Shown: positions 2,533-52,003 of the stretch, piece after piece
How positions within the stretch are numbered: position 1 is the stretch's first letter
How the letters are laid out: every line of letters begins with the position of its first letter
Source: an uncultured Anaeroplasmatales bacterium
GTDB lineage: Bacteria; Bacillota_I; Bacilli_A; Acholeplasmatales; JAEDCM01
Direction: 5' to 3'
NCBI GenBank assembly: GCA_964634685.1
Contig: CAZWLD010000009.1
Span: 292-64,291, forward strand
DNA length: 64,000 bases
Made by a program: the position numbers and the translations under genes
Notes under the pieces: generated by a model
Database searches by the model: none
Told to the model about the DNA's origin: nothing
What the model saw: only the letters and a program-made list of their open reading frames with translations

Positions 2533-4884
2533 TTAGTACTTATCATCATAAGGAGTATTCTCAACCCCTTCGTCTTGTAGCTTAGTTACCATACGGTCCA
2601 ATCTCGATTTCCACATTTTTTTAAACCATTTTTTCTTTCCGAATATTTTTACAATTGTTGGACTTATTGCATAATATAGCTTTATAAACATTCTTCCATG
2701 CCATGTCTTGTCCAATTTAAAATCGCGAAAACGCCTAAGTGTCCAAACCTCAGGGCAATCATAAGAGCCATAAACACAAGTTGCAATATAGCAACCTGCT
2801 TTCCTATCTGGTTGAGTAGCTTCATATGTTAAGCCATTATAATTATAAACAAATGGATTAACTTCATACTCAACACTACTAGTTGATATTTTATTAACAT
2901 ATGCCCAATCTTTAAATTGTTTTTGGATTTTGTCTCTTTCCCTTTTTTCGTATTCAGAAAATTCATAATAAAAATGTAGTAAAGTATAGGTAGAATCATT
3001 GATTTTATACAAAAGATCGTACCATAAAGTATATGTAAATTTCAAAGTTGAACGGCCAAGGCTAATATCAAGATGGTCATTGATGCAAATAATGTCCTTA
3101 GTATAAATTGTTCTAAAATTTAAACCTTCAATATCAAAAATCACTTTATCTTCATATAAGGTAATAACCGTCTTACGATTTAATATATACCCTCCTGAAA
3201 CAGTGATTTTAGTCAATTCTAAAAATGAAGATTCAGAAATATCATTTCTAGATAACTTAGCCCAGCTTTCTAAAAGAGGTATCGCTACTTTATATTCATT
3301 TTCGGTTACAATTTTTATCTGCATTTTAACCACATTGAAGACTTGTTCACTTATCTCAAAGATTTCCTTTTTGTTAGAAAGTGATTCACCATATAAATCA
3401 ACAAATTGAACTAGGTTTGAAGACATTTCGCAATAAGAAGTGAATTTCGATTCTTTTATATTATAAGCTTCAAATGACACTCGTTTAAAATAATCTCCAA
3501 CAAAATTAAATAAAATGATAGTGTTTTTTTCTAGTCTGTTACAAAATGCATCATATTGTTCTTTTATTGAATCATTTTTCTTTGACATTTCTCTAATAAT
3601 AGGTAATCCTAATTCAGTTACTGGATTTATTGCCTTTTTAACATCCGTTTCTGATAACCCGGCATCAGACAATTTATCAAATTGTAATCTAGACTCGATG
3701 GCATTAATAATGCAATCAGCGAATAGTTTTTGTTCATTTTCGGAGGTTACATTTCCACATATATCAAAGTGACTTCTTTGATAATCACTACTCATTATTA
3801 AAAATAGCCTTCCATAGAAATTGTTGGAATCCTCTTCAAGAATACCATCTCCAAACTTTTTTAAATTAGGGTGTTTTTCACCATAAATAACTATATTATG
3901 AGATTTTAAATACTCTAAACCTTTTTTTGTTAATGATGATATCTTATTAATAATTTGTGTTTCTTCTTCATTCTTTTTATTCTCATTAGGCTTTTTAATG
4001 ATTTTTTTAATTCCTCTTACAACATCATTAATAAACCCAATTTTGCTCATATCCTGTGCTTGTAAATGCGAGAATTCCTCTGGCAATTCGTATGCATCCA
4101 TATCCTTATAGCAAGGTATAAGCATCTTACTATGATCATTTTTCATCATCTTAAGGAATCGAGACCATTCATTTTTTACCCATACAGCATTAAAATATTC
4201 AGGCTTTGTTCCTATAGAAAGCATGACCTTAGCTGAATTTAGCGCTGCAAAAATAATTGGCTCATATGCACTCCCAAGTTTATCCTCAAGAGTAATAGCT
4301 GCATAAAAAACCTTAAATCCTTCATTTGTAAGATTATGGTAAATTTCATTTGCAATCACACTATCTTTTGTTCTATTTCCGCTTGAGTCAGTTTCCTTGT
4401 AACAAATAAATACATCATAAGGCTCTTCGTTTGCAGAAATTGCAAGAATTCCTTTCTGAATTTCATCAATTTGCATTGCTTCCTTTTCATAGATTGTACG
4501 TTGTACAACATCGGCATATTGAAGAGCCTTTTTGTAATAATCATCCGCAACAATTGATTCGTATGATGTTCTATGACATGTAGGTATTCTTTTGTATGTT
4601 TTTGGATCCTCTACATACTCAATTCCAAATTTACAAAGAATAACACCCCAATATGCTTCAGACTCTCTTTCATCGTTTTGTATTATTTTTTCATAAATAG
4701 CTTCTGCTTTGTCAAATTCATTTTTTTGACGTAGTAAATTAGCTCGATTAAAAAGCCCTTGAATATTTTCATCTGTAGTACTTGGTAATGTTTGTTGGGT
4801 ACCACAGTATTCACATTCAACAACCTTTTCTCCTTCTGAAACTGAAAGCTCACCGCCACACATTTTACATTTATAAATAGCCAT
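2533..4884 (-). CDS. Zinc-ribbon / TPR-like / TIR domain protein with Cys-motif C-terminal module (TIR-A)
   Basis: 783 aa. aa1-30 form a CxxC..CxxC ribbon (CKMCGG..CEYCGT). aa45-130 are helical and TPR-like (AYWGVILCKFGIEYVEDP..PTCHR). aa155-295 form a TIR fold (YDVFICYKETD ... AVWVKNEWSRFL; Glu239 codon at 4168..4170). The C-terminal 87 aa read GCYIATCVYGSYDCPEVWTLRRFRD... The start lies 15 nt after the upstream gene and has a GGAAGAGGG RBS. Confidence 0.75.
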   Translation of the reverse strand: MAIYKCKMCGGELSVSEGEKVVECEYCGTQQTLPSTTDENIQGLFNRANLLRQKNEFDKAEAIYEKIIQNDERESEAYWGVILCKFGIEYVEDPKTYKRIPTCHRTSYESIVADDYYKKALQYADVVQRTIYEKEAMQIDEIQKGILAISANEEPYDVFICYKETDSSGNRTKDSVIANEIYHNLTNEGFKVFYAAITLEDKLGSAYEPIIFAALNSAKVMLSIGTKPEYFNAVWVKNEWSRFLKMMKNDHSKMLIPCYKDMDAYELPEEFSHLQAQDMSKIGFINDVVRGIKKIIKKPNENKKNEEETQIINKISSLTKKGLEYLKSHNIVIYGEKHPNLKKFGDGILEEDSNNFYGRLFLIMSSDYQRSHFDICGNVTSENEQKLFADCIINAIESRLQFDKLSDAGLSETDVKKAINPVTELGLPIIREMSKKNDSIKEQYDAFCNRLEKNTIILFNFVGDYFKRVSFEAYNIKESKFTSYCEMSSNLVQFVDLYGESLSNKKEIFEISEQVFNVVKMQIKIVTENEYKVAIPLLESWAKLSRNDISESSFLELTKITVSGGYILNRKTVITLYEDKVIFDIEGLNFRTIYTKDIICINDHLDISLGRSTLKFTYTLWYDLLYKINDSTYTLLHFYYEFSEYEKRERDKIQKQFKDWAYVNKISTSSVEYEVNPFVYNYNGLTYEATQPDRKAGCYIATCVYGSYDCPEVWTLRRFRDFKLDKTWHGRMFIKLYYAISPTIVKIFGKKKWFKKMWKSRLDRMVTKLQDEGVENTPYDDKY

Positions 4885-4899
4885 ATTTTTCCCTCTTCC

Positions 4900-5742: not shown

Positions 5743-5754
5743 ATACTATTACCT

Positions 5755-6474: not shown

Positions 6475-6477
6475 CCT

Positions 6478-8208: not shown

Positions 8209-8282
8209 ATATGATACTTCCTTTCTTTATTAATAATTGCAGTATTTTACAAAATATAAGATAATATTATATAGTTTATTTC

Positions 8283-8309: not shown

Positions 8310-8454
8310 TATTTTTGGAAAATATTATCAAAAATTGTCATCTGCGCAAACATTGCAAACAAAAATCAAAAAAACAGGTTTTCTCTTTATGGCGCGAAAA
8401 TTACAAATCTAAACAACATATATTTTCAATCAAAAATCAATATTTTTTCTGTAT

Positions 8455-8485
8455 AAAAAAAATAGGCTTCACAAAATGTGAAGAC
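8455..8485 (-). terminator. Rho-independent terminator downstream of the ATPase gene
   Basis: Minus strand reads GTCTTCACA TTT TGTGAAGCC followed by TATTTTTTTT. The core stem is 7 bp. It separates ORF 8602..9612 from the downstream operon promoter. Confidence 0.65.
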
Positions 8486-8601
8486 TATTGTCTCAAAGAA
8501 AAATATCTTACTTATACTATTAGAATGTAATCATCATAAAATACTCTTTTTTCAAAAAAATTTATTCTTCTATTAATAGCTTTTGAAAGGCCACAAATTC
8601 T

Positions 8602-37741: not shown

Positions 37742-38328
37742 TTTTTCGAGAAAATATATTTAGCAGCCTCAACTACGCCAAGCTTTGACCAACCGCTTCC
37801 ATCATAAAATTCACAAACCACGTCACCATTAGGGGCCGTTTCGATGCGAGCACAGGACGTAAACTTGATGGTTTTTCCATTAATTAATAAAAGCTGCGGA
37901 GTGGTTTCTCGATCAATTCCGTAATTTGCGGCAAAGGTTTTACCATCATCACTTCCCGCATCAATTAAATATATTTTTTTAATTCCGGCTTTTTTGGCAT
38001 ATTTATTAATAGGAGTTATACTTTCTTGACAGCTTTTGCATGTTGGCTTGCTGAAGAAAACATAAAAATCCTCAGAGGAAGCCGCAAGCTTTTTGATATC
38101 ACTATAGGTCGCTTCCTCATAAACATTACCGATAGGTAAAAATGATGATGAATATTTTCTTGAAACACTATCACCCCAGAAATAGAGAGCAAAGGTTCCA
38201 ACAGCTAGTAAGCCCACTAAAATTAAACTAATATTCACAATTGTTCTTCTCTTAAGAAAAATTCTTGGAGAAGATTTTTTTCCTGAAGAATTTTCTTTAT
38301 TTTCCACGATAATCCTCCCTTGAAACAT
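37738..38328 (-). CDS. Membrane-anchored thioredoxin-like protein
   Basis: One TM helix (aa31-52) and the CxxC motif FFSKPTCKSCQE in a thioredoxin-sized domain. Its stop codon overlaps the convergent murE stop. Confidence 0.5.
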   Translation of the reverse strand: MFQGRIIVENKENSSGKKSSPRIFLKRRTIVNISLILVGLLAVGTFALYFWGDSVSRKYSSSFLPIGNVYEEATYSDIKKLAASSEDFYVFFSKPTCKSCQESITPINKYAKKAGIKKIYLIDAGSDDGKTFAANYGIDRETTPQLLLINGKTIKFTSCARIETAPNGDVVCEFYDGSGWSKLGVVEAAKYIFSKN

Positions 38329-39730
38329 TATAAACTATACTACACTTATATCCTAAGCCATCCTCACGATTAAAGGCTTCATCAAAGCTTGATGCCTCAA
38401 AATAAAGGGTAGTCTTTGATTGATTGGTTGAACAGCCATAGAAGGCTTTTTCACCAATTGTTGTGACAGTACTAGGAATATAGGCTTTTTCCAATAAAAT
38501 ACATAGCATAAAGGCCCCATTACCAATTTCTTCAACCGATGCTAAATCTACTTCCGTCAAAGAAGTCGTTAAAAAAGCTTTTTCTCCGATTTTTTTAACG
38601 GAATCAGGTATTTCAACCCGACTAAGTGAACGAGCCGCAAAGAAAGCATAATCGCTTATTTCAGTAATTCCCTCAGGAATTACATATTGATGTCCACTAC
38701 CAACATATTTTAACAAGGTATTATCTTTAATAATCACATCATCCTTGACATCTGATTTCTTAAATAGATAGCTTGTATATTTAGAAAACAAACTGTTTGT
38801 GGAATAATTATCATAATAATCATCCCCAACTAAAATCGCACCACACGAAAAGCCAGATAATTTTCCTTTCATTTTCGGCACATCGCCCAAAAACTCAACC
38901 CATTGAAGGAATGACATTGTTAAGCTGTATTGGCCAATTGTAGTAACAGACGCAGGAATCGTTAGATTCGATAAATTGGTATTATAAGCAAAATAGTCTC
39001 CGATTTCCTCTAAAGAATTAGATAATTGTAAATTCGTTAAATAAACACAATCCTTAAAGGCTGAATCGCCAATTGTAATAACGGAATTAGGTAAAACTAC
39101 ACTATAAACCTTTGAGCCGGCAAAAGCATAGGGTTCAATATTTAATAAAGTATTAGGAAGGCCAAATTCACCATCATATGAAGAAGGATATTGATAAAGA
39201 ACGGTTTGATTCTTATTATACAATAGGCCATCCATTTCTGAATAGTATTTGTTGTTTTTGTCAACAACAAAGGCTTTATTGAAGGTTAGATTTCTAAAGG
39301 CATCAGTACCAATACTTTCAACATTTTTTCCAATAATGACCTTTTCTAAAAGACTACATCCATAGAAGGCACGATCGCCAATTGTGACTACTCCACTATT
39401 TTTTACATAGGAAACCTCACGTAAAGCTCTTGATTCTTCAAAGGCTGATTCACCAATCGTCTTCACAGAGTCAGGAATAATAACCTTAACTAATTTGGAG
39501 TTTTGAAAGGCACTAGCGCCAATTTCTTCAACATAGTATCCATCAAGCTTTTCGGGAATACGAATATCATTAATATTTGTGTCCTTTAATCCTGTAACAA
39601 TGGCCACACCGTTTTTAATTGAATAATTAAAATATTCCTTGCTTGTTTCGGCCATTAGCTTTTCGCCACAAGCACATAAGGTAAGCGAAAAGAACAAAAG
39701 AAATAATAATATTTTTTTCAAATAAAACAC
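38297..39730 (-). CDS. BspA-type leucine-rich-repeat lipoprotein
   Basis: Signal peptide with a Cys lipobox (SLTLCAC), followed by many IP.SV..IG..AF repeats. Confidence 0.7.
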   Translation of the reverse strand: MFYLKKILLFLLFFSLTLCACGEKLMAETSKEYFNYSIKNGVAIVTGLKDTNINDIRIPEKLDGYYVEEIGASAFQNSKLVKVIIPDSVKTIGESAFEESRALREVSYVKNSGVVTIGDRAFYGCSLLEKVIIGKNVESIGTDAFRNLTFNKAFVVDKNNKYYSEMDGLLYNKNQTVLYQYPSSYDGEFGLPNTLLNIEPYAFAGSKVYSVVLPNSVITIGDSAFKDCVYLTNLQLSNSLEEIGDYFAYNTNLSNLTIPASVTTIGQYSLTMSFLQWVEFLGDVPKMKGKLSGFSCGAILVGDDYYDNYSTNSLFSKYTSYLFKKSDVKDDVIIKDNTLLKYVGSGHQYVIPEGITEISDYAFFAARSLSRVEIPDSVKKIGEKAFLTTSLTEVDLASVEEIGNGAFMLCILLEKAYIPSTVTTIGEKAFYGCSTNQSKTTLYFEASSFDEAFNREDGLGYKCSIVYNVSREDYRGK

Positions 39731-39754: not shown

Positions 39755-39784
39755 AAAAAAAAATACCTAGAAAAAATCTAGGTA
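39755..39784 (-). terminator. Rho-independent terminator (duplicate copy of the pyk terminator)
   Basis: Minus strand reads TACCTAGA TTTTT TCTAGGTA followed by T9. It is identical to the hairpin at 50587..50607. Confidence 0.8.
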
Positions 39785-39829
39785 TTGATTGGAAATATTA
39801 AAGAGTAACGACTTTCATTTCGTTTTCAG
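39756..39829. repeat. 74-bp perfect direct repeat, left copy (pyk 3' end fragment plus terminator)
   Basis: Identical base for base to 50579..50652. It contains the last 10 codons plus the stop of pyk (39798..39829), detached from any pyk body. Confidence 0.95.
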
Positions 39830-39852
39830 GATATAACAAATTTGTTTAACCC

Positions 39853-42800
39853 TTATTCAGACTTATTTTTATCATCTTTAAAAAATGCTTGGATCAATCC
39901 AATTATCATAATTACTACTGACAACGGTATGAACCAAATAATTGCAATTTTTTCTTCTATACCATCGACAACTTTATCAAAAATTTTATACTCTATATAC
40001 GCAAAAACAGGAGATAATAATAATAAAAGTACGTATATCCATTCTGCTAATTCACCATCTATATTACTATTTTGAACGAAAATTAATGCTCCTATTAAGA
40101 AAATTAAACTGTATAAATATAATATTGACCTAAGAAAAGCCGAGATTTTTACAAAGATTTCCATATAATCGTGATCATAATGCCCGTCTTTGATAAAAAC
40201 CACTATGTTCATCAAAACAATCAAAAGATAACTTGAAGCTAGAATAATTATGTCAGGTATACTAAATGATAAAACAAAGGAATCTGATGGTTTCCATGCT
40301 AAACATGTTTTAAAACATAAGTGTAATAATCCAGCTATTGGGAAAAATGAAAAAACAAACAATAATATGAAGAGAATTGAAGAAAAAATAGTTTTAATAA
40401 AATTCGAAATTGCATCATTTCTTTTTTCAACCCTAATTTTATTTTGAGTAATAATTTTTTCAGAATCAATCTCTACTCTAATCTTTTCCATTGATAGTAA
40501 ATAAGAGTTTTTATTCTTACCGCCATATATTTCAATTCTCTTTTTTAAACTCTCATATAATAAATTTAATTTGTTGATACCTTCTACATCATATGGTTTA
40601 TATCTGTAGCATTTTAAATCATATTCAAGACAATGAAACTTTTTATTACACTCTTTACAAAAGTTATCCCAAATCGCTTCATCGTCATTTTCTTTAAATA
40701 TTGAAAATAAAGAATTGGCTCTTTTCAATGATTGTAAACAATCATATTCTTCATCAATTTTTTTCTTATACCTATTATTCAATTCCTCTTTTATCTCCAC
40801 ATATGTTGAGGAAGCAATAATCTTTTCACATTCTTCAATTATGGTTTCGATTTCATCAATATTATCAACATTTCTTTCCGGTAATGACGCCAATAATTTT
40901 TGTACCTCAAAAATAGATGAAGTGTATTTCTTTTGAAAATCAACAATCTCGATTAAATCATCTATTAAGCCGCCTGCGAGGGTATTTCCTTGTCTTTGAA
41001 GTTTAACCAAACCACTCTTTATTGAGGAAATATTCATTGCCTTATCAGCTACTTTTACTTCATCCTTTGTTAAACATCTATTATCTGCTAATTCAATATA
41101 GTATTTTGCACAAATACAATCAAATGAATTTTCATTAGATTGCTGAACTATATATTGACTATACATTTTCTTAGCTGCCGAAAAGGCCTTAAACTTATGA
41201 AGATTGACCGCAAAGGTTGCTAATAAAGAATCAATTGTTGTTGGTGAATCCTTATACATATAAAAATCACTACAAGGATCTAGGCTAACAGTTTTTGGTG
41301 AATTAACCTTTAATGGCGTTTCATCTAATGAATAAACTATATATTTATTGAATAAATCAAATCCATTTAATTGTTCATCCTTATCGCCCTTTGAAGGCAC
41401 TAATAAGCCGTCTTCAGTTTTTTGATAAGCATCTTCATCTGTGATTATCGAAATTAAGAAGGTTTCAAGATACTTAGGTTTCGTAGCGGGTGGTGCATAT
41501 CTAAATAGATTAGTAAATTTTTCAATAATCTCCTTGTTATGAACAATATGAAGGTTTTCCTTATTTGAAACATCCTTTTTATCACTTAATGTATTTCCCA
41601 ACAAATTCTTCCGCAAAGCGATATACTCGTTTGGAGTATATATATTCTTTGTAACGTTAATGGAAATATAATACCATAAGGCTTCATAATCACCCTTATT
41701 TACATCGATTATTTCCTTAAGCTTTGCTTGAACAAATTCCCTTGATTTTGGCCTTAAATCTGCATTTAAAAACAAATCAAGAGCCTTTTTACGAGATTCA
41801 ATATATTTGTTAGGATCATTATTAGTAACATATTGTTTGATTAATAAATAATCACTAATTATGTCAATTATTGAATCCTTTTTTTCAACATTTTTAACTG
41901 TTTGATAGATATTAGATGCAATCTTATTAAGAATCCCTTTATCTATATATTCTATATAGGGAATAATACATATTTTCAAGACAGGCTTTTGAACTAAATG
42001 ATTATAATTGTCATTTGCCAATAGTTGAGCGATTTTTGTAATAACCTTTTTTGAATCCTCCTCAGTCGCTACTTTAAAGAATTCTTCCGCTACTTTTGGT
42101 TCTTTCGATATATTTTCTAAATTATTAAAATACGCATCAATTCCTAAAAATTCTGTATCTTTCAATAACAAATATTTTTTAGCTAAATAAGCATCCTGAT
42201 GCTCAGAAACGATTCTTTCAAGCTCAACAAAGGCATTTTTTCGATTTCTTTTGATTAATTCAAGATTATTTTCGCTTCCTTTAGGACTTCTTTCAATATC
42301 GTAAATCAAGTTATCAATCTCATCCTGAAGAGTTGAATCTGTTTTTTGATAGGTTGTAAATTTTCTGGTTGATTGAACCATACTTGTTATCTTTACATCA
42401 CTTATCTCAGCAACTTCGCTTTTGAATTCCTTTGATGTAATCTTCTTAATAGAATTATCAAAAACGTTATCCTTAATGAATTCTAGTAAATTAGTTTCAG
42501 CTCCCGGTTTTCCTAAATAGATATGTTGTAGATTTTTAAATTCGTATGGGACATCATTAGGATTCATAGTCTTTGTAACAAATACAAATGATCTCTTTTG
42601 ATTTTTATTACGATTTTGAATCTCAGGATCCATTAAATATAGATAACGCATCCATTCATTTCTTACCCACTGCCATTGAATGTTAGTCTCATTTTCGCCA
42701 ACTAAGATAAATACCTTAGCGGATTGTAATGCCGAAAAGATGATATGTTCATATTTCTTTCCCGTGAATAATCCCTGACAACGCTCAGATAAAAACACCT

Positions 42801-43428
42801 TTACTCCGGGAATTTGATCTTTAATAAAATCATACAATCCAGATGCCAACTCATAATCTTGTGTCCTAACAATTGAGCCATCTTCATTTTTGATTGGCTC
42901 GTTTGTCCTTGGGTCGATTTTAGAGACCTTTGTGGAGATAAAAATATCAAATTTATACTCACCATTCTTATAAACTTCTTCGATTTCTTTTCGAACCTTT
43001 TCAATATATTCAAATGTCTCTAAAAAGGATTCTTTTTGATAAGGCTTTGATAACTCCAAACTTTTTTTAACAAATTCACTTTCCAAAATGTTTTCAAAAT
43101 TAATATTATTTAAAGTGGGAATATTGTCATATTTCCAATTCAATTTATTATCATTTGGAGTATAACAAATACAGTTTCTTGCCAAAGCACTTAAAAACCA
43201 TACTTCTGCATCCTTCGGATTTGATTCCCTTAATTCACGTAAGTCTGATTCTGCTTCCTTGAAGCGCAAATCTTTAAGATAACGATAAATCTTTTTATAT
43301 TCATCCATCTTTTCAGCATCCATATTATGAACACCACCACAAGCCGGGCACTTATATAATTCATCAATTTTTTTCCATGTTGATGCATCAAATTCCCTCC
43401 AGCAACGTGGGCATTTTTTCTCTCCCAT
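39853..43428 (-). CDS. Zinc-ribbon / TPR-like / TIR domain protein with long helical region and C-terminal polytopic membrane domain (TIR-B)
   Basis: 1191 aa. aa5-32 form a ribbon (CPRCW..CPACGG). A TPR-like segment follows. The TIR fold spans aa157-320 (42469..42960; YKFDIFISTK ... QWQWVRNEWMRYL; Glu258 codon at 42655..42657). The last about 200 aa (39874..40476) contain about six hydrophobic helices. Confidence 0.75.
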   Translation of the reverse strand: MGEKKCPRCWREFDASTWKKIDELYKCPACGGVHNMDAEKMDEYKKIYRYLKDLRFKEAESDLRELRESNPKDAEVWFLSALARNCICYTPNDNKLNWKYDNIPTLNNINFENILESEFVKKSLELSKPYQKESFLETFEYIEKVRKEIEEVYKNGEYKFDIFISTKVSKIDPRTNEPIKNEDGSIVRTQDYELASGLYDFIKDQIPGVKVFLSERCQGLFTGKKYEHIIFSALQSAKVFILVGENETNIQWQWVRNEWMRYLYLMDPEIQNRNKNQKRSFVFVTKTMNPNDVPYEFKNLQHIYLGKPGAETNLLEFIKDNVFDNSIKKITSKEFKSEVAEISDVKITSMVQSTRKFTTYQKTDSTLQDEIDNLIYDIERSPKGSENNLELIKRNRKNAFVELERIVSEHQDAYLAKKYLLLKDTEFLGIDAYFNNLENISKEPKVAEEFFKVATEEDSKKVITKIAQLLANDNYNHLVQKPVLKICIIPYIEYIDKGILNKIASNIYQTVKNVEKKDSIIDIISDYLLIKQYVTNNDPNKYIESRKKALDLFLNADLRPKSREFVQAKLKEIIDVNKGDYEALWYYISINVTKNIYTPNEYIALRKNLLGNTLSDKKDVSNKENLHIVHNKEIIEKFTNLFRYAPPATKPKYLETFLISIITDEDAYQKTEDGLLVPSKGDKDEQLNGFDLFNKYIVYSLDETPLKVNSPKTVSLDPCSDFYMYKDSPTTIDSLLATFAVNLHKFKAFSAAKKMYSQYIVQQSNENSFDCICAKYYIELADNRCLTKDEVKVADKAMNISSIKSGLVKLQRQGNTLAGGLIDDLIEIVDFQKKYTSSIFEVQKLLASLPERNVDNIDEIETIIEECEKIIASSTYVEIKEELNNRYKKKIDEEYDCLQSLKRANSLFSIFKENDDEAIWDNFCKECNKKFHCLEYDLKCYRYKPYDVEGINKLNLLYESLKKRIEIYGGKNKNSYLLSMEKIRVEIDSEKIITQNKIRVEKRNDAISNFIKTIFSSILFILLFVFSFFPIAGLLHLCFKTCLAWKPSDSFVLSFSIPDIIILASSYLLIVLMNIVVFIKDGHYDHDYMEIFVKISAFLRSILYLYSLIFLIGALIFVQNSNIDGELAEWIYVLLLLLSPVFAYIEYKIFDKVVDGIEEKIAIIWFIPLSVVIMIIGLIQAFFKDDKNKSE

Positions 43429-43523
43429 ACCTTACAACTCCTTGCAAATAAAATGATTTAGAATTTTATTCATTAGATTCTAATTTCAATATCATTATTT
43501 TAATTAACATACAATATGAATAA

Positions 43524-45719
43524 CTAAAACATTATTTCTTCTCCTGTATTTGTAATATACCCCTTTAACTGTCCATTGGTATACAAAACAACTTCCTTTA
43601 CATTTGTATAATATCCAACTATTTCATCGTAGTTATACAAACCTCCATACCAATATGATCCTAACGATATTTTACCCATATCAAATGATTGAAATAAAAC
43701 TATTGCTTTTCCATCATCTTCAAATGCTTCCTTTCCAATTTTAGTCAAAGTTGCTGGAAGATGAACATATTTTAATGATGTATCAAGTGCAAATGCAAAG
43801 TCTCCAACTATTTCTACCTTTGATGACTCGTTATAGTCAACATATTTTAACTTCTCGCATTTGTAAAATGCATAATCACCAATATATCTTAATTGTTTTC
43901 CTAAAGTGACATCAGTTATTTCAGCAAAAGCAAATGCTTGATTACATACATACATAATATCTCTTCCATCAACTTCACTTAATTCAATACTCAATAAAGA
44001 AGATCCATTCATATACTTCATAATACCAACATAATCATCATCAGTAATAAAATATCTATAATTGCCATTTTCCTTTACTTCCTTTACATTTGTATAATAT
44101 CCAACTATTTCATCGTAGTTATACAAACCTCCATACCAATATGATCCTAAAGATATTTTACTTGTATCATATGATTGAAATAAAACTATTGCTTTTCCAT
44201 CATCTTCAAATGCTTCCTCTCCAATTTTAGTCAATGTTGCTGGTAAATGCACATATTTTAATGATGTATCACGTGCAAAGGCAAAGTCTCCAACTATTTC
44301 TACCTTTGATGACTCGCTATAGTCAACATAATTTAAATTCTTACATGAATAAAATGCATAATCACCTATATACATTAGTTCTTTACCTAAAATAACATCT
44401 GTTATATTTGAATTTTTGAATGCTTGACTACATACATACCTTACTTCTATTCCTTCAACAGTATTTAAATCAATACTCAATAATGAAGATTCATTCATAT
44501 ACTTCATAATACCAACATAATTGTCATTAGTAATAAAATATCTATAATTGTCATTTTCCTTTACTTCCTTTACATTTGTATAATATCCAACTATTTCATC
44601 GTAGTTATACAAACCTCCATACCAATATGATCCTAATGATATTTTATATGTATCATATGATTGAAATAAAACTATTGCCTTTCCATCATCTTCAAATGCT
44701 TCCTCTCCAATTTTAGTCAATGTTTCTGGAAAATGAACATATTCTAATGATGTATCAAGTGCAAATGCATAATCTCCAACAGTTTCTAGACAAGTATTTC
44801 CTAAATCCAAAGAGGTTAAGGATGATTTATAAAATGCATATGAACCAATACTAGATAAAACAGTATATCTATCTAACACCAATTTATTTATTTTTGAACC
44901 ATAAAATGCTCTTTTGCCAATCGATCTTATTGTTGCAGGTAATTTAACACTAGTGATTGCTCGGGATTCAAAAGCTTGATTTGCTATCTCATCTACCATT
45001 TTATCATTATGATATGTTGGAATAACAATGTCCGGATAAAAGCCTTCATATCCAACTACTTTATAAGTATTTGTATCTTCTTTAAATTCATATATTATTC
45101 CTTCTGTTCCTTCATCTATATAGGAGAATATTGCAGTAAAATTAGTATCTTTTTTACATAGAACATCAGTTGTGTAAATCTCACCATAGTCATCTGCCCA
45201 TCCAACAAGTATATAACCACTTTCATCATTAACTATTGGGAAATCTATTACTTGTCCATAATCATAATAATTTGTAGTAATTAGCGTCCCATCATAGTTA
45301 TAAAAATTAATTGGTATGTCCACTGGTGGAGCAAAATTAAAAGTTAGGGGACCTGTAGATCCAACTTCTTCTTTACCTAAAACTTCATTGAAGTTTTTAT
45401 ATGATATATCTACAACAAATTTGCCCGGATTAGGAGAAGATATACCAATTTCATACTCTCTATCTGATACTTTAACCCACTCTATTTTTGCGCCACAATT
45501 ATTTTCAATAATGTCAAAAGAAAAATCTTTAGTATTTGTAGTAGTATGATTTTCTTTTCCATTTATTAATAACTTAGTATATAAAAAATACACCTCATCT
45601 ATTTCGTATGAATCTTGCAAATTAGTAATACATAATTCATAATCATTTCCAAAAAGAAATCCGCATGATGCTAAAGTCAACATAGTAAAAACACAAAGCA
45701 AAAAAAATATTTTTTTCAT
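43524..45719 (-). CDS. BspA-type LRR lipoprotein with 162-aa tandem repeats
   Basis: Start moved to ATG 45719 (MKKIFFLLCVFTMLTLASC, lipobox LASC). There are LRR units and 2.5 near-identical 162-aa repeats (..DTSLKYVHLPATLTKIGEEAFEDDGKAIVLFQSYDT..YYTNVKEV..). Confidence 0.7.
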   Translation of the reverse strand: MKKIFFLLCVFTMLTLASCGFLFGNDYELCITNLQDSYEIDEVYFLYTKLLINGKENHTTTNTKDFSFDIIENNCGAKIEWVKVSDREYEIGISSPNPGKFVVDISYKNFNEVLGKEEVGSTGPLTFNFAPPVDIPINFYNYDGTLITTNYYDYGQVIDFPIVNDESGYILVGWADDYGEIYTTDVLCKKDTNFTAIFSYIDEGTEGIIYEFKEDTNTYKVVGYEGFYPDIVIPTYHNDKMVDEIANQAFESRAITSVKLPATIRSIGKRAFYGSKINKLVLDRYTVLSSIGSYAFYKSSLTSLDLGNTCLETVGDYAFALDTSLEYVHFPETLTKIGEEAFEDDGKAIVLFQSYDTYKISLGSYWYGGLYNYDEIVGYYTNVKEVKENDNYRYFITNDNYVGIMKYMNESSLLSIDLNTVEGIEVRYVCSQAFKNSNITDVILGKELMYIGDYAFYSCKNLNYVDYSESSKVEIVGDFAFARDTSLKYVHLPATLTKIGEEAFEDDGKAIVLFQSYDTSKISLGSYWYGGLYNYDEIVGYYTNVKEVKENGNYRYFITDDDYVGIMKYMNGSSLLSIELSEVDGRDIMYVCNQAFAFAEITDVTLGKQLRYIGDYAFYKCEKLKYVDYNESSKVEIVGDFAFALDTSLKYVHLPATLTKIGKEAFEDDGKAIVLFQSFDMGKISLGSYWYGGLYNYDEIVGYYTNVKEVVLYTNGQLKGYITNTGEEIMF
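43575..44800 (-). repeat. Tandem 486-bp in-frame repeats (about 2.5 copies)
   Basis: The marker string CCTTTACATTTGTATAATATCCAAC recurs at 43595, 44081 and 44567, a period of exactly 486 bp. The flanking sequence is nearly identical between copies. Confidence 0.9.
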
Positions 45720-45723
45720 AATC

Positions 45724-46315
45724 TTACAACTCCTCATTTTTCTTTTTTCTTTGAAAAAATGACTTAATGTCTTTAATTTCTAAATCTATTTTTCCATCAT
45801 CTTTTTTTATTCTTTGAACGATTAAAAATACTGTGGCAGAAATCACCAATATAGTTGAAATAACCTGAGAGGGTGATAAAAACGGCAATATTTTTCCACG
45901 ATTATCACCTCGCATAAGCTCAGCAAAGCAGCGATAAATGCCATAAACATAACTATAGACAATCCATCTTCTCTCCTTGATAAACAAAACTAATATCCAA
46001 AAAAAGATGAACATAATCCAGCCTCAATTAATTGAGACGGAATAAGCTTTGTTCAAAATCCATAAGTCATTGTTGAAATTGATTCTTCTGGATAAACCAA
46101 ACCAAAAACGGAATTGATTGGTTTTCCAAAACAACAACCCTCATAAAAACAACCAAAGCGGCCAAAGGACTAACCAATAACAAATAAAGGGATATTATTA
46201 TTTGATGTTTTTTCATAAAGCAATAAAAATATATTATACCAACAGTTATTCCTAATATGATTGTTAAGGGATATATAGCAATTTCAATATTTCCAATATT
46301 ATATTTTGGATACAT
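45724..46315 (-). pseudogene. lgt: Disrupted prolipoprotein diacylglyceryl transferase gene
   Basis: The N-terminal fragment (46067..46315) ends at a TGA. The motif IPSQLIEAGL (the Lgt HPSQLYE region) lies in a second frame at about 46015..46045. The C-terminal fragment (45724..46014, ..VYGIYRCFAELMRGDN..LSPSQVIS..) lies in a third frame. The total span of about 197 codons compares with about 270 aa for intact Lgt. Confidence 0.6.
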
Positions 46316-46362
46316 AACAAATCCATCCTTTAATAATAAATATGCATAAATAAAATCAACTA

Positions 46363-48462
46363 CTAATTTTGATAAAACCTTTTTGCATTTACTAATAATT
46401 CATTACCGCTATCAATTCTCATATTATTCCATTGTTCAGCGCTTCCTAGATAATATATTTTATTAAGATTATTACACTCAGTAAATGCTTTTTCTTCTAT
46501 TTCAATAATATTAGATGACATCGTAACAGTAGATAACTTGTCACAATTATAAAATGCATATTTTCCTATAGATGATACTTTAGAGGGAATAGTTATACTA
46601 TCCAATTGACTACAATTACAAAATGCATAATCTCCAATGCGAGCTAAATTATTTGATAGTATAACCTTTCTTAATTTGTCACAATCCTTAAATGCATCTG
46701 TATTTAACTCTTTAGCATCAGCAGGAATAATTATTGATTCAATGCCATGATACGTTGTGCTCCAAGCACCATTTTCATCAATTTCTCCGATTCCTATCGC
46801 GGTTTCCCTAATATGATAAGAGGCAAATCTATCTTCCCAATTCGCTTCGGCATATTTGCCATTAATCAAAGAATTTACCCTTGGAAATAAAGTTCGATAA
46901 AATGATCCATCAGAATAATATGCACTATAATACAACTGAAAATCACAATTAAAATTCATTAAATAATTTAATTTTATACCAGCAGAATTGACTACATAAT
47001 ATCCTAAAAATTCGGTATCATTCGATAATTTAATATCTTTAACCATTTTATTTTCTTCTTCAGAATTATCACTTTTTGTTTTTTCAAAATATATACTTGA
47101 TACTGTATATTCCTCATCATCTTTAGCAAATGTTATTTCAATATAGCTATACGATACTTTTGCCAATTCTTCCATAAGTTTCTCTTCTTCACCTGCTAGT
47201 TTAAGATAAGCATCATCATTTCCATTAACTAAAGCCTTTTCTTGATCTAAATTATTCTTCTTAATCTTTTTCAAGATTGATGAATACGAATTGCTATAAT
47301 ATTTCCACACTGTTTCTGAAGAAAAATCCTCATATGGTGATCCTAATATTTTCTTTACTTCAGAAGATGTATATCCAGGCTCAATTTTTTCCACAACGGA
47401 AATCTTAAATTTATTATTAAAATAAGAAATGGCAAAGCATCCAGCTGTTATAATAAAGATAGCTAAAATCGTAATCAACATACAAAAAGTTTTATGTAAA
47501 GCTATCCAAATCACAAAAGAAGGAGTCTTTTTTTCTGTAGCCTTATCATACTGACGTTTTTCATATTTATATATTATGAGCTGCTTTTTATTATCTTTTT
47601 CACTTTTTACACTTGTAGGCATAATTGGTTCTTGATGTGTTTCATAAAATTTATCTCTTCGGGCTTTCTCATTTTCTCTATATAGAATAATTTTATTAGC
47701 CTCATTTTTAACTAATTCCGGATATTTTTTCGCTAAGAAATGTCTAACAATGAAACTTGAAATTGATAATAAAGCAAACAATAAAGAGAAGACTATCAAT
47801 AAAATCGGACAACTACCTGCTTTAAATATGCCCATTCCTTCATCTATAGATGATATTTCACAAATAATTATTATTCCAAAAGCTAAGAAAATGGCATAAA
47901 AAATAAATGACATATATTCTAGAAAAATAAATATAGGCTGAACATTTTTACCAAATCTTATTTCTTTATTTCTAATCTTAGTGGAAAACACCGTTATACT
48001 AGAAATCAGAGCGAAAATAATTGTTACAATTGCTACTATAACTAGTGTTATCATAGCCCATTCAATTTCAGGAATTTCGCTTAACAACCCTGAATACATT
48101 TGATAGACATTACCAAGACTAATATTAGGCAAACCTTCACCCATTATTACCTCTGCTACAGGGGCTGCATAAAATGCAAATATTAATAAGCTAAAAATGC
48201 CAGATAAAATAACAGGTACATATCGTAAAATTGAATATATTAATCCAATATTAAGATTTGATGTTTTATTCTCAAGATTATTTTTACTTTTCTGTGGCTT
48301 AACCTGATTATCACCTAAAAAACAACCACATTCATTACAATACTTAACCAAATCATTTAACTTTGTTCCACAATTAGGACATATTTTTTCTTCCCATTTA
48401 GTTCCGCATTCAGGGCAAAATTTTCCTTCAAACTCTTTACCACAATTAAAACATTTTTTCAT
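46363..48462 (-). CDS. Double-zinc-ribbon / polytopic membrane / LRR protein
   Basis: The likely start is ATG 48462 (MKKCFNCGKEFEGKFCPECG..CPNCG..CNECG) after GGGAGAG. It has about 7 TM helices, an extracytoplasmic region with an SmpA/OmlA-like GYTSSEVKKILGSPYED motif, and C-terminal BspA-type LRRs. Confidence 0.65.
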   Translation of the reverse strand: MKKCFNCGKEFEGKFCPECGTKWEEKICPNCGTKLNDLVKYCNECGCFLGDNQVKPQKSKNNLENKTSNLNIGLIYSILRYVPVILSGIFSLLIFAFYAAPVAEVIMGEGLPNISLGNVYQMYSGLLSEIPEIEWAMITLVIVAIVTIIFALISSITVFSTKIRNKEIRFGKNVQPIFIFLEYMSFIFYAIFLAFGIIIICEISSIDEGMGIFKAGSCPILLIVFSLLFALLSISSFIVRHFLAKKYPELVKNEANKIILYRENEKARRDKFYETHQEPIMPTSVKSEKDNKKQLIIYKYEKRQYDKATEKKTPSFVIWIALHKTFCMLITILAIFIITAGCFAISYFNNKFKISVVEKIEPGYTSSEVKKILGSPYEDFSSETVWKYYSNSYSSILKKIKKNNLDQEKALVNGNDDAYLKLAGEEEKLMEELAKVSYSYIEITFAKDDEEYTVSSIYFEKTKSDNSEEENKMVKDIKLSNDTEFLGYYVVNSAGIKLNYLMNFNCDFQLYYSAYYSDGSFYRTLFPRVNSLINGKYAEANWEDRFASYHIRETAIGIGEIDENGAWSTTYHGIESIIIPADAKELNTDAFKDCDKLRKVILSNNLARIGDYAFCNCSQLDSITIPSKVSSIGKYAFYNCDKLSTVTMSSNIIEIEEKAFTECNNLNKIYYLGSAEQWNNMRIDSGNELLVNAKRFYQN

Positions 48463-48568
48463 ACTATCTCTCCCAATATTCAACAAAATAATTCATATAA
48501 AAACAGCACATCTTTAAAGTACTATTCTAAAATTATGCAAAATCAAAAACAATATTTATTTTCTTTGA

Positions 48569-48970
48569 TTAACCAACATATTCCGTTTTACGGTGAGCAT
48601 ATAAAACTTCAATATCCTTGATTTTACCCAAAATAATCTCAACAGTTGTCTTTTCTTGTTTGGATAATAGCATTTTTAATTCGGCTATTGCCCCCGCTAT
48701 CTTTTGATCTACCTTCAAAACACCACTTTTTGGCGATACACTTACAAAATCTGCGGTATGCTTCAATTGCTTTAATTTTTCCTTAATTGCTTCGTCCGAC
48801 TCTTCAGCTAAAGCAATTAACATACCAATTTCATTAGCATTCTTTTTAATTACATCATCGTCATCATTATTTATTTCTACTGTTGTTTTGTCATCCTTAA
48901 AATTTTTAGAGATAATAATCAAAACCACTACTAAAACAATAACAACGGGAATTAACCAATAATACCACAT
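48569..48970 (-). CDS. Single-pass membrane protein with helical cytoplasmic domain
   Basis: 133 aa: an N-terminal TM helix (WYYWLIPVVIVLVVVLIII), then a charged helical tail resembling the tail of ORF 5755..6474. It lies 12 nt downstream of the SPFH gene. Confidence 0.55.
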   Translation of the reverse strand: MWYYWLIPVVIVLVVVLIIISKNFKDDKTTVEINNDDDDVIKKNANEIGMLIALAEESDEAIKEKLKQLKHTADFVSVSPKSGVLKVDQKIAGAIAELKMLLSKQEKTTVEIILGKIKDIEVLYAHRKTEYVG

Positions 48971-48982
48971 ATAATCAACCTC

Positions 48983-50086
48983 CTAGAGCTTCTTGCCACA
49001 TTCAGGACAGAATTTAGCATCAAATTCTAATTCCTTTCCACATGAACAACGAATTTTATTACCAGGTAATCTTTCCCCACAGCCTACGCAAAATTTTGAA
49101 CCAATTTCGTATGATCTTCCGCAATGAGGACAAAATCTTCCTTCTTTAGCCGGCACAGTATTTTGATTTTTTTCAGAAATAATCTTTAATACTTCATAAT
49201 ATTTCTCTTTATCAGCTAATTCTAATTGCTTTAATAAAAGCTCTCTTTGCCATTTTCTCTCATCCTCATCTTGTTCACGAGCATAGGCCTTATCTGATAA
49301 TCTTTCAAGCTCATTCGCAATTTCTTGGGCTTCCTTTTTTTCCTTGATTTCAATTCGTCTTCTAAATAACTCATCCTCAATCGCTTCAGCTTCATCCTCT
49401 TGAATTCCTAAGCGTTCAACTGTAAATGAACATAATTTTAGACCAACATCATTAATCATTAGCTCATTCAAATACGGAAGAATACTATCGCCAATTGGTT
49501 TCATATACATTTGGATATCCAAATATGAATAAACCTTTTCACGAATTACTCTTTGTAATGCATCCGCAAAATAAGACATCAACCTTACGTCGATTCTTTC
49601 CTTCAATGAATCAATAGAATAGATTTTATCTGAACCAATGATTTCAAGATAAAACTGCTTTGGATTATCAACCTTGACCTCAAACTCTCCTCCGCCTCGA
49701 ACATGAACAACATTTTCTGTTAAAGGATCACGATAAATAACAGGGTTTTTTGTGCCCCATTCAACTTTGAATTTGACGGTCTTATTAACAAAAATTATGT
49801 CAACGTCAACTGCATCAAGCTTTGGTCTACGGAATAATCCTCCTTTTTCAACAGTCTCGAAAATTCTATATCTTCCACCATCAAGGATATCCTGCAATTT
49901 ACCATCCTTGATATATATACAAGAATGAGTTGGTGGAACAACAATCGTACATTCAGGATTTAAAATATTTCCTGAAGTCCTCCAAAAAAAGAGATCATTA
50001 TCTCCTTCAAAATGAATAATTGAAGTATTTTCATCTAAAACTGATGCATCTCCTATATCCATATTAGTTACTATTTTCTTTGCCAT
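48983..50086 (-). CDS. SPFH/band-7 domain protein with C-terminal zinc ribbons (SPFH-B, YdjI/COG4260-like)
   Basis: 367 aa: SPFH core, coiled coil, and C-terminal CPHCG..CVGCG and CSCG..CPECG ribbons. AGGAGG RBS lies 7 nt upstream. Confidence 0.75.
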   Translation of the reverse strand: MAKKIVTNMDIGDASVLDENTSIIHFEGDNDLFFWRTSGNILNPECTIVVPPTHSCIYIKDGKLQDILDGGRYRIFETVEKGGLFRRPKLDAVDVDIIFVNKTVKFKVEWGTKNPVIYRDPLTENVVHVRGGGEFEVKVDNPKQFYLEIIGSDKIYSIDSLKERIDVRLMSYFADALQRVIREKVYSYLDIQMYMKPIGDSILPYLNELMINDVGLKLCSFTVERLGIQEDEAEAIEDELFRRRIEIKEKKEAQEIANELERLSDKAYAREQDEDERKWQRELLLKQLELADKEKYYEVLKIISEKNQNTVPAKEGRFCPHCGRSYEIGSKFCVGCGERLPGNKIRCSCGKELEFDAKFCPECGKKL

Positions 50087-50110
50087 AATATTCCTCCTCT
50101 TTCCAACTTT

Positions 50111-50139
50111 AGTATACTTCTTTTGTCATTTTTTGTCAA
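50111..50139 (-). promoter_or_regulatory. Near-consensus promoter of the SPFH-B gene
   Basis: Minus strand reads TTGACA (50134..50139), a 17-nt spacer, then TATACT (50111..50116), followed by the AGGAGG RBS. Confidence 0.65.
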
Positions 50140-50207
50140 TTATTACTTATCATTGCTGATAATTATAATTCTTCATTAATATAGTAAAATAACAATAGGT
50201 GAAAAAT

Positions 50208-50504
50208 ATGGTTATTGAAATTAGTGAAAGAATAAAGGAATTAAGAGAAGCGAAAAGCATGTCTCAAACAGCATTAGCTAAGGAATTGAATATATCTCGA
50301 ACTGCAGTTAATGCCTGGGAAATGGGAATTTCACTGCCATCAATGGAAAAATTAATTGAATTATCGAAAATATTTAATGTGAGTGCTGATTATTTATTAG
50401 GCATTGAAAATAAAGTTACAATAAAGCTAGATAGCCTTTCAGATGAACAAATAAATGTTATATTAGATTTAGTAAACATATTATCAAAATCAAATAATCA
50501 ATAA
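50208..50504 (+). CDS. XRE-family HTH transcriptional regulator
   Basis: The typical Cro/C1 HTH is SQTALAKELNISRTAVNAWEMG. ATG 50208 is preferred over track GTG 50199 because AGGTGA lies 6 nt upstream. The gene is divergent from SPFH-B. Confidence 0.8.
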   Translation: MVIEISERIKELREAKSMSQTALAKELNISRTAVNAWEMGISLPSMEKLIELSKIFNVSADYLLGIENKVTIKLDSLSDEQINVILDLVNILSKSNNQ

Positions 50505-50531
50505 AATTATCTATTATATTTCCTAAAAAAA

Positions 50532-50558
50532 AGAAACACTCGAAATGTTTCTTTTTTT
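50532..50558 (+). terminator. Rho-independent terminator after the XRE gene
   Basis: AGAAACA CTCGAAA TGTTTCT followed by T7. Confidence 0.7.
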
Positions 50559-50578
50559 CTTTAATAATATTTATTAAT

Positions 50579-50607
50579 AAAAAAAATACCTAGAAAAAAT
50601 CTAGGTA
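50579..50607 (-). terminator. Rho-independent terminator of pyk
   Basis: Minus strand reads TACCTAGA TTTTT TCTAGGTA followed by T8, starting 13 nt after the pyk stop. Confidence 0.85.
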
Positions 50608-50652
50608 TTGATTGGAAATATTAAAGAGTAACGACTTTCATTTCGTTTTCAG
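50579..50652. repeat. 74-bp perfect direct repeat, right copy (authentic pyk 3' end plus terminator)
   Basis: Identical to 39756..39829. Sequences immediately outside both copies are unrelated. Confidence 0.95.
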
Positions 50653-52003
50653 TAACAACTAAAACGAAATCTCCTTCAGATACTTCAATATTTGCTTTTA
50701 CATAATCGATTGCAGCATTTAAATCAAAATCAAATGCATATACACCGAAGTTTAATGCAAGTCCACGAGCCTCACGACGGTTAGGAACGCAAGCTACGAT
50801 TGGGCAGCAAGGACGGAATCTTGAACATGCAGATGCTAATTTAGCTTCACCAACAGTGATGATAGCAGATGCTCCAAATTCTAATGCTGATTTAGCAGCA
50901 CTCATACCTAACATAGTAGGGAAATCTAATTCATAAACACCATCTAAAGCACGATCGAACATTAAATCAAAATCAATTTCATCGCCCATACGGTCATCAA
51001 TCTTAGCCATATAGCGAACTGATTGAATTGGATAATCTCCACCAGCAGATTCTCCTGATAACATTGTTGAATCAGCTCCATCTAATACAGCATTAGCAAC
51101 GTCGTTAACCTCGGCACGAGTAGGACGTGGATTTGATTGCATAGATTCAAGCATTTGTGTTGCAACAACAACGATCTTTCCTTGAGATTGACATTTAGAA
51201 ACTAATTCCTTTTGAACAACTGGTACTTCCCAAGCAGGAATTTCAACACCCATATCTCCACGAGCAACCATAATACCATCAGCGATTTCAATGATTTCAT
51301 CAAGATTATCAACACCCTCTTGGTTTTCGATTTTAGCGATAATCTTAATATGATCATTTCCTTTAGCAGCTAAGATATCACGAATCTCTTGAACATCGCT
51401 AGCACGACGAACAAATGAAGCACTGATGAAATCTAAGTCTTGATCACAAGCAAATTCCATATCAGCCTTATCCTTAGCTGAAATAAATGGCATATTTAAT
51501 TTAACGTTTGGAACATTGATTCCACGTTTATCTTTAATTTTATGAGTATTTTCAGCAACACAAACTAATTCACGATTAGCTTCATCCTTTTCAACGATAG
51601 TTAATTCAAGATATCCATCATCTACTAAGATTGTTCCGCCTACTTCAACATCATCATATAATCCTGGGTATGTTACAGAGAATTTTTCTGCAGTTCCTAA
51701 AACTTCCTTCATTGCAATACGAACAGTTGAACCCTTCTCGACAGTAACCTTCTTTTCTCCCTCTTTGTATTGGAATAAATGAGTACGAATTTCAGGTCCC
51801 TTAGTGTCTAAGCATAATGCTACGTTAGTTCCTAATTCTTCATTTAATTCACGGCAGTTTTTGATACGGAATCCGTGTTCCTCATAATCTCCATGAGAGA
51901 AGTTCATACGTACAACGTTCATACCAGTTTTGATAAGCTCACGCATAACGTCTTTTTGTTCAGATGCTGGTCCGATTGTACAAATCATCTTTGTCTTTTT
52001 CAT
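50621..52003 (-). CDS. pyk: Pyruvate kinase
   Basis: MKKTKMICTIGPASE N-terminus and the motifs NFSHG, MVARGDMGVEIP and TQMLESM. At 460 aa it has no PEP-utiliser extension. Confidence 0.95.
   Translation of the reverse strand: MKKTKMICTIGPASEQKDVMRELIKTGMNVVRMNFSHGDYEEHGFRIKNCRELNEELGTNVALCLDTKGPEIRTHLFQYKEGEKKVTVEKGSTVRIAMKEVLGTAEKFSVTYPGLYDDVEVGGTILVDDGYLELTIVEKDEANRELVCVAENTHKIKDKRGINVPNVKLNMPFISAKDKADMEFACDQDLDFISASFVRRASDVQEIRDILAAKGNDHIKIIAKIENQEGVDNLDEIIEIADGIMVARGDMGVEIPAWEVPVVQKELVSKCQSQGKIVVVATQMLESMQSNPRPTRAEVNDVANAVLDGADSTMLSGESAGGDYPIQSVRYMAKIDDRMGDEIDFDLMFDRALDGVYELDFPTMLGMSAAKSALEFGASAIITVGEAKLASACSRFRPCCPIVACVPNRREARGLALNFGVYAFDFDLNAAIDYVKANIEVSEGDFVLVVTENEMKVVTL

Follow-up and report, generated by a model that had tools for sequence, protein, structure and literature searches.

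TIR domains are central to animal, plant and bacterial immunity, and the bacterial TIR systems known so far work as sensors or effectors in the cytoplasm. What would a bacterium do with a TIR domain that is anchored in its membrane? The question is raised by the gene TIR-B, which lies in a stretch of 64,000 nucleotides from an uncultured Anaeroplasmatales bacterium (assembly GCA_964634685.1, contig CAZWLD010000009.1, positions 292 to 64,291 of the forward strand); this whole 64-kb stretch is referred to as the window, and all coordinates of TIR-B and its surroundings are given in it. The original prediction, made by a model that read the window without database searches, suggested a membrane-triggered effector that depletes nicotinamide adenine dinucleotide (NAD+) or produces a signal. 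Our results show that the N-terminal region of TIR-B contains a real but divergent TIR domain, that this domain is part of a zinc ribbon-TPR-TIR (ZnR-TPR-TIR) module which defines a very large protein family, and that across this family the genes have a statistically strong link with genes for SPFH proteins.

The open reading frame of TIR-B (39853..43428, minus strand) consists of 1191 codons without a break, ends in a TAA stop, encodes 1191 amino acids (aa) and has a Shine-Dalgarno sequence GGAG (43438-43441 region) 10 nt 5' of its ATG. The sequence motifs of the N-terminal part, i.e., CPRC at aa6-9, CPAC at aa27-30, FDIFIS from aa160 and WVRNE at aa254-258 (codon 42655..42657 for Glu258), are located exactly where they had been predicted.

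Four independent lines of evidence identify aa156-322 (42463..42963, minus strand) as a TIR domain. The shared N-terminal plan that had been noticed in TIR-B and its paralogue TIR-A (2533..4884, minus strand; 783 aa) is a true homology, as aa1-363 of TIR-B align with aa1-328 of TIR-A at 26% identity (BLASTP, E=5e-24), and it does not extend past this region of TIR-B. The Pfam family TIR_2 (PF13676) is matched by TIR-A at 2.7e-10 and by 67 of the 70 N-terminal modules of family members collected from 75 genome loci (E<=1e-3), while the N-terminal 336 residues of TIR-B reach only E=0.026 and 15.4 bits, below the cutoff of 28. Pfam misses the domain in TIR-B itself, and the assignment is an indirect one, through relatives and structure. 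The AlphaFold model of aa1-335, built from an alignment of 63 sequences, has a mean predicted local distance difference test score (pLDDT) of 93.1 and a predicted template modelling score (pTM) of 0.88. It exhibits a TIR-like beta-alpha pattern, in which the strands 162-165, 211-213, 239-243, 280-285 and 301-304 with helices between them form a flavodoxin-like parallel five-strand sheet of TIR topology. Almost all best Foldseek matches of this model in the PDB are TIR domains, with C. elegans TIR-1 at the top, accompanied by flax L7, MyD88 (TM-score 0.73-0.74, normalised to target length), TRAM, SPARTA TIR-APAZ, EcThsB, TcpB and TIRAP, and the Foldseek probabilities of the TIR matches are 0.95-1.0. 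When the TIR part of the family was searched as a profile against PDB sequences, it matched TIR proteins only and set the family motif W-V-K-N-E-W on WCQYEL of a TLR TIR domain, WCLMEL of L6/L7 and WPAREL of Brucella TcpB. The model, the Foldseek matches and the profile speak for the TIR fold rather than another flavodoxin-like fold, which had been named as one outcome that would overturn the prediction. The profile of the TIR-B subfamily detected no TIR protein among PDB sequences, just GATA fingers and designed coiled coils. Pfam also reported TmcA_N at aa270-377 (E=5e-4, below cutoff), which we consider spurious, as it overlaps the TIR domain's C-terminal half and the linker.

The glutamate in the WxxxE motif of the C helix serves TIR NAD+ hydrolases as their catalytic residue (PMC10641520). 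In the model of TIR-B, W254-E258 begin the helix 253-265 immediately after strand C; the first strand betaA carries FDIFIS (160-165) and is followed by a beta-hairpin insert (166-189) specific for the subfamily. Glu258, Trp254, Asn257, Arg261, D161 and F163 show no variation in three alignments, of 12, 70 and 63 sequences, whose identity with TIR-B is only 20-55%. Judged from this invariance and from the alignment with L6/L7 and TcpB, Glu258 occupies the position of the catalytic glutamate of TIR NADases, in agreement with the role of putative catalytic residue initially assigned to it.

The TIR domain does not stand alone in the N-terminal part of the protein. The zinc ribbon (aa5-34; 43327..43416, minus strand) is formed by C6, C9, C27 and C30, and all four cysteines are invariant among 63 family sequences. 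Its spacing in the TIR-B subfamily is that of GATA fingers, Cx2C-x17-Cx2C with W-K/R-K/R and Y-x-C-x-x-C-G (43339-43416, aa5-30), and the subfamily profile matches the GATA-type zinc fingers of GATA-1 and GATA-3 (E~2e-4); the spacer is shorter in the wider family (x14). The TPR-like helix pair noticed behind the ribbon is a genuine single TPR with a capping helix (aa40-84; 43177..43311, minus strand; model helices 41-52, 56-69 and 74-84), since the family profile matches consensus TPR proteins across positions 44-81, and TIR-B on its own gives weak matches to TPR_16 and TPR_14 of Pfam. A conserved beta-hairpin and a long helix with conserved Y89, P104 and T105 link the TPR to the TIR domain (aa85-155; 42964..43176, minus strand). 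The high pTM of the N-terminal model indicates that ribbon, TPR, linker and TIR domain form one compact module.

This module is followed by a helical region of about 670 residues (aa~335-1005), for which we used a full-length model made from 12 sequences (mean pLDDT 71). The middle region (aa~365-812; 40993..42336, minus strand) is a confidently modelled TPR-like alpha-solenoid with pLDDT 80-93, and Foldseek matched the full-length model to the TPR/solenoid proteins Ctr9, Ski3 and IFT-A, whose dominance makes this search uninformative on the TIR domain. No family profile covers this middle part of TIR-B, and it is conserved solely in the TIR-B subfamily, which comprises about 20 cluster representatives among the matches listed. 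The solenoid passes into a coiled-coil-like stalk of long helices (aa~816-1005; 40414..40983, minus strand; model helices 816-847, 877-913, 948-969 and 973-1043), whose sequence is poorly conserved and which is continuous with the first membrane helix. Hydropathy of the whole protein confines the hydrophobic helices to the C-terminal block at aa~1006-1185 (39874..40413, minus strand), with none outside it. About six had been predicted there; the membrane block is real, but hydropathy and the model give five helices in it (973-1043, 1057-1081, 1086-1120, 1125-1152 and 1162-1182), and a sixth could arise if the first one, with its length of 35 or more residues, forms a hairpin. Hydropathy and model thus bear out the tethering of the TIR domain to an integral membrane domain. 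As the solenoid and the coiled-coil stalk join the N-terminal module to the five to six transmembrane (TM) helices, the TIR domain would be kept close to the membrane on its inner face. Some members of the subfamily have an extracellular beta-rich domain within the membrane block. A separate protein of 1009 aa (P0036) combines the distal solenoid and a duplicated multi-helix membrane domain with an unrelated N-terminus and an acidic, proline-rich linker, which indicates that the parts are modular and that the stalk-and-membrane part also occurs without TIR.

How common is this architecture? A word-indexed search found 11 other full-length relatives of TIR-B with 27-40% identity, and the same type of search with aa1-335 as a single sequence returned one protein only. 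With the alignment of the full-length relatives as query profile, we searched 1.84 billion cluster representatives exhaustively by HMMER, which gave 5630 proteins at E<=1e-3, 4447 at <=1e-10 and at least 1659 at <=1e-30. Among the matches listed, about 20 cover the whole profile and nearly all others just positions ~1-335. On the basis of these searches, TIR-B is a member of a small subfamily characterised by the solenoid inside a very large family characterised by the ZnR-TPR-TIR module, i.e., a Cx2C...Cx2C ribbon, a single TPR and a TIR domain bearing W-V-[KR]-N-E-W within the first ~330 residues, all of which are present in TIR-B.

The wider family was surveyed in 94 open reading frames at 75 loci (L015-L089) of Lachnospiraceae, Christensenellaceae, Oscillospiraceae, Erysipelotrichaceae, Anaeroplasmataceae and uncultured Bacilli. 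Its members have the ribbon at aa~6/24 and WxxNEW at aa~235, and about 70 of the 94 have at least one hydrophobic helix after the module as judged by hydropathy only. Tandem paralogues are frequent and form arrays of two to three. The domains that follow TIR are variable: among 89 proteins, BspA-type LRR_5 leucine-rich repeats were found in 16, DUF6273 in 8, RCC1 repeats, SH3_3 and ankyrin in 4-5 each, Flg_new in 3, and TPR (several models) in at most 13. Relatives of about 1500 aa from gut Clostridia and Christensenellaceae consist of ZnR-TPR-TIR, a single TM helix (aa~410-450) and, at the C-terminus, a long LRR_5 region, as in L080:9866-14608, L074:494-5095 and L083:9941-14908.

The genomic neighbourhood offers a further clue. 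The gene SPFH-B (48983..50086, minus strand), coding for a Band_7_1 protein with a C-terminal double zinc ribbon, lies 5.5 kb upstream of TIR-B on the same strand and within the same segment bounded by repeats, and the prediction had paired TIR-B with its cassette. The pairing is supported family-wide, with Band_7_1 SPFH genes within 7 kb on the same strand at 39 of the 75 family loci and at none of 80 control loci (Fisher p=5e-16), counted by iterative search, the controls being regions of similar total length around pyruvate kinase genes. Band_7_1 proteins (15) and double zinc ribbons (9) are the most frequent families among the immediate same-strand neighbours (n=91), and the SPFH proteins linked to the family often have C-terminal zinc ribbons themselves. 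The locus of P0003, the closest homologue of TIR-B (40% identity; L001-L003), repeats the gene order of the TIR-B cassette, with an SPFH protein 63.5% identical to SPFH-B, a small membrane-anchored protein (42%), intervening genes including an AAA ATPase, next the TIR protein and last an LRR_5 protein, and a resolvase is located near this homologous cassette. One member from Anaeroplasmataceae has the SPFH gene 4 nt downstream of the TIR gene, and TIR-A is two genes away from SPFH-A.

A mobile island had also been predicted around TIR-B. The window contains a single long exact intergenic repeat, a direct repeat of 74 nt at 39756-39829 and 50579-50652, with a 25-nt hairpin core for which 0 occurrences are expected by chance. 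The left copy (50579..50652) is the true 3' end of the pyruvate kinase gene pyk (50621..52003) with its terminator; the right copy (39756..39829), 23 nt past the TIR-B stop, consists of 32 nt of pyk 3' coding sequence and the terminator hairpin, which doubles as the terminator of TIR-B. Sequence identity of the copies stops abruptly at both sides. To judge by their sequence, the repeats are the signature of an integration into the 3' end of pyk, and they flank an inserted segment of 10.75 kb (39830..50578, minus strand) that ends in TIR-B. The island is thus a discrete insert as predicted, but no recombinase domain was found in its open reading frames, so its mobility is either past or reliant on functions in trans. 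No tRNA gene was found in the window, hence the island is not tRNA-targeted. A search of the metagenome collection for an empty site gave no exact match to the repeat core, and the nearest pyk relatives in the JGI metagenome collection (<=58% identity full length, <=65% partial) are too distant for such a comparison.

The first gene of the island is a divergent XRE regulator (50199..50504, plus strand). On the minus strand, SPFH-B is followed by genes for a 133-aa protein with an N-terminal membrane anchor (48569..48970), a double zinc ribbon/multi-TM/LRR_5 protein (46363..48486), membrane proteins of 82 aa (46067-46315) and 96 aa (45724-46014), and an LRR_5 lipoprotein directly upstream of TIR-B (43524..45737). 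The 96-aa protein is a remnant from the C-terminal part of prolipoprotein diacylglyceryl transferase (Lgt), 46% identical to an intact Lgt (L009:5389-6192) that is encoded 13 nt upstream of the gene for the TIR-B homologue P0010 (L009/L010). The remnant shows decay inside the island and, by this comparison, may go back to an earlier linkage of lgt with TIR. In front of SPFH-B there is a promoter-like site (50139..50111), which is only a consensus match; the promoter scan overall performed no better than shuffles (86 sites, with 86.9 expected). No internal terminator among the island genes was convincing.

The distant pyk relatives point to a poorly sampled, Bacilli-like gut organism of low GC content (~31%), and the window as a whole encodes seven BspA-type LRR_5 proteins. 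The repeats of the LRR_5 lipoprotein upstream of TIR-B (43447-44862) are three tandem 486-nt units with 76-93% identity, and a downstream LRR_5 lipoprotein (38297..39730) lies outside the repeat-bounded segment. Besides TIR-A, whose C-terminal domain is CFI_box_CTERM (NF041770, 1.8e-20), the TIR-A cassette (2533-9612) encodes a DUF2971 protein, a membrane protein with four helices, SPFH-A and a P-loop NTPase of the KAP type, the last of which weakly matches PADLOC mad8. At the 3' end of the SPFH-A gene (6478-8208), three tandem copies of an 84-nt repeat (6482-6733) code for zinc-ribbon units.

What might such a protein do? SPFH proteins are large oligomeric scaffolds bound to the membrane, and the enzyme activity of TIR domains depends on their self-association. 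We propose that TIR-B is a cytoplasm-facing, membrane-anchored TIR enzyme in which clustering triggered at the envelope leads to Glu258-dependent cleavage of NAD+ and to its depletion or to a signal, and we give this proposal about an even chance of being correct; the catalysis, its trigger, its outcome and any role in defence are what we infer from the features described above. A change in the envelope, which could be membrane damage, phage attack or binding of a ligand to the LRR_5 surface proteins, would be reported by the SPFH protein together with the membrane or outer parts. TIR-B molecules would in turn form clusters within the membrane plane via stalk and solenoid and assemble a composite TIR active site, in which Glu258 would catalyse the cleavage of NAD+. 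The result could be NAD+ depletion and arrest of the cell, or a signal derived from ADP-ribose. A wider hypothesis, which we hold only tentatively and consider somewhat doubtful, is that SPFH proteins and ZnR-TPR-TIR membrane proteins make up a widespread envelope-surveillance system of gut Firmicutes, with variable outer or membrane sensors switching on a catalytic TIR. As a precedent for the proposed TIR-B enzyme, TIR proteins of E. coli with TM or TPR domains provide phage defence that needs the TIR active-site residues (PMC11350192).

Several observations weigh against the proposal of a membrane-anchored NAD+-cleaving enzyme. Pfam gives no TIR match for the whole of TIR-B at E<=0.01, the Foldseek E-values of the TIR matches are weak (7e-3 at best), and the BB-loop region of the TIR-B subfamily deviates from the family consensus. 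The membrane helices are modelled with low confidence (pLDDT below 55 in the full-length model), and no other part of the protein varies as much as the membrane block, which has two to more than six helices across the subfamily. No match to TIR-B was found in PADLOC, PHROGs or NCBIfam, the phage and plasmid collections gave no family match, and IMG/VR yields three family loci only. Five of eight contexts of TIR-B-type genes consist of a lone gene among housekeeping genes, with no SPFH nearby, and these five genes are located outside defence islands. The island contains no ThsA-like partner (SLOG, Macro, SIR2, SLATT, caspase and others were looked for).

One alternative is that TIR-B is a signal generator similar to ThsB, whose small messenger derived from ADP-ribose has as its target either a separate receptor encoded elsewhere or a further island protein. 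The TIR_2 family, to which the TIR domain of TIR-B probably belongs, includes ThsB-type enzymes; one family member gives weak matches to ThsB and Aga_TIR and TIR-A gives one to ThcB4, and many new Thoeris types couple TIR proteins with membrane effectors (preprint 10.64898/2025.12.03.692087). However, no gene with a known nucleotide-sensing domain, and no such effector, recurs beside the family, and among the partners only the SPFH protein is broadly conserved, with a Vps4-like AAA ATPase (AAA, AAA_lid_3, Vps4_C) next at 9 loci. Most TIR-B-type genes are solitary. We consider this alternative unlikely.

A different alternative is that the TIR domain has no catalytic function and serves assembly as an adaptor, TIR-B being a component of SPFH microdomains in envelope homeostasis, lipoprotein handling or display of surface proteins and having no role in immunity. 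Such a function would fit the location of several TIR-B-type genes amid housekeeping genes (lgt, PRPP synthase, Fe-ADH, peptidase M32), the remnant of Lgt within the island, the LRR_5 surface lipoproteins on both sides of TIR-B and the rarity of the family on viral or plasmid DNA. According to the part of the literature cited in PMC10936438, the Band_7_1 protein YdjI of B. subtilis recruits PspA for the repair of membrane stress. A pure adaptor is hard to reconcile with the invariance of Trp and Glu of the WxxxE motif over hundreds of millions of years' worth of divergence, with sequence identity of only 20-30%, and the many tandem paralogues with fast-varying outer domains look less like housekeeping systems than like conflict or receptor systems; we regard this explanation as improbable.

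That the substrate of the TIR-like domain is not NAD+ and that it acts, e.g., as an N-glycosidase of nucleotides or nucleic acids similar to DNPH1 and the deoxyribosyltransferase relatives, is very improbable, as the related fold of DNPH1 (Foldseek ranks 8, 11 and 19), the beta-hairpin insert after betaA and the atypical BB loop of the subfamily are set against a Foldseek list dominated by TIR domains ranking above DNPH1, a sequence profile that matches only TIR proteins in the PDB, and the TIR_2 matches of nearly all family modules.

The preferred proposal, a TIR enzyme tethered to the membrane on its inner face, can be placed among known systems. TIR-B most resembles the bacterial WxxxE TIR NADases (AbTir, TcpB/BtpA, TirS) and ThsB in its proposed mode of action. 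It shares with them the TIR fold, the box-1-like betaA FDIFIS and a Trp-x3-Glu motif that opens the C helix and has its Glu in the catalytic position. These known proteins are either soluble, small or provided with an N-terminal coiled coil, whereas in TIR-B the TIR domain stands behind a ribbon and a TPR and is followed by ~670 helical residues and a membrane domain. TIR-B is not a Thoeris system because an effector partner is not present. The E. coli TIR defence systems of one or two genes (PMC11350192), compared here by architecture, likewise combine TIR with TM or TPR parts in one protein, but they come from Proteobacteria, have no link with SPFH and are built without the ZnR-TPR-TIR module. 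SARM1 and C. elegans TIR-1 are membrane-associated TIR NADases with an alpha-solenoid beside the TIR domain, similar to the plan of TIR-B, and are activated by oligomerisation; the domain order, however, is reversed, and in SARM1 the accompanying domains are ARM and SAM, and a mitochondrial targeting sequence takes the place of TM helices. We regard this likeness as an analogy, with homology limited to the TIR domain.

For the SPFH part, the closest comparison, made by description, is pspA-ydjGHI of B. subtilis, in which YdjI is a Band_7_1 protein, YdjG has a zinc ribbon and YdjH is a membrane protein. SPFH-B similarly joins Band_7_1 to zinc ribbons and is followed by a small membrane-anchored protein, but the TIR-B island has no PspA, and its linked component is a TIR protein. 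By analogy, the SPFH-B cassette is presumably a membrane-scaffold module. A functional SPFH link would provide a testable way into the coupling of envelope events with NAD+ chemistry and into the role of Band_7_1 SPFH proteins, and the repeat-bounded island provides a defined 10.75-kb unit in which TIR-B could be cloned and tested.

The ZnR-TPR-TIR family is not included in PADLOC v2, NCBIfam or PHROGs, nor in the expansion of Thoeris to types V-XI, and our literature search found no description of the ZnR-TPR-TIR module, the solenoid stalk, the SPFH linkage or the relatives resembling Toll-like receptors. The fusion of TIR with membrane helices was already known (PMC11350192); apparently new are the module, the stalk and, above all, the family-wide linkage with SPFH and the relatives resembling Toll-like receptors, in a family with thousands of members in gut Firmicutes. 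The same survey remarked that features of Toll-like receptors, i.e., a TM segment and leucine-rich repeats, seem absent from bacterial TIR systems (PMC11350192). The ZnR-TPR-TIR family, as far as its sequences indicate, contradicts this remark, since it combines a catalytic-type TIR inside the cell with TM helices and variable outer domains that include leucine-rich repeats. TIR-B itself has no ectodomain, and the LRR_5 proteins of its island are encoded by separate neighbouring genes; it is its LRR_5-bearing relatives that contain the leucine-rich repeat, TM and TIR parts of Toll-like receptors, and they differ from these in the inverted topology with N-terminal TIR, in the BspA type of the repeats and in the retained catalytic glutamate. 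Should the family prove to be an envelope-surveillance system, the proteins with BspA-type outer domains would represent an inverted layout of Toll-like receptors, TIR-B would be a variant that carries a multi-helix membrane domain as sensor on a long solenoid stalk, and the family would be a bacterial, enzymatically active counterpart of the transmembrane TIR receptors.

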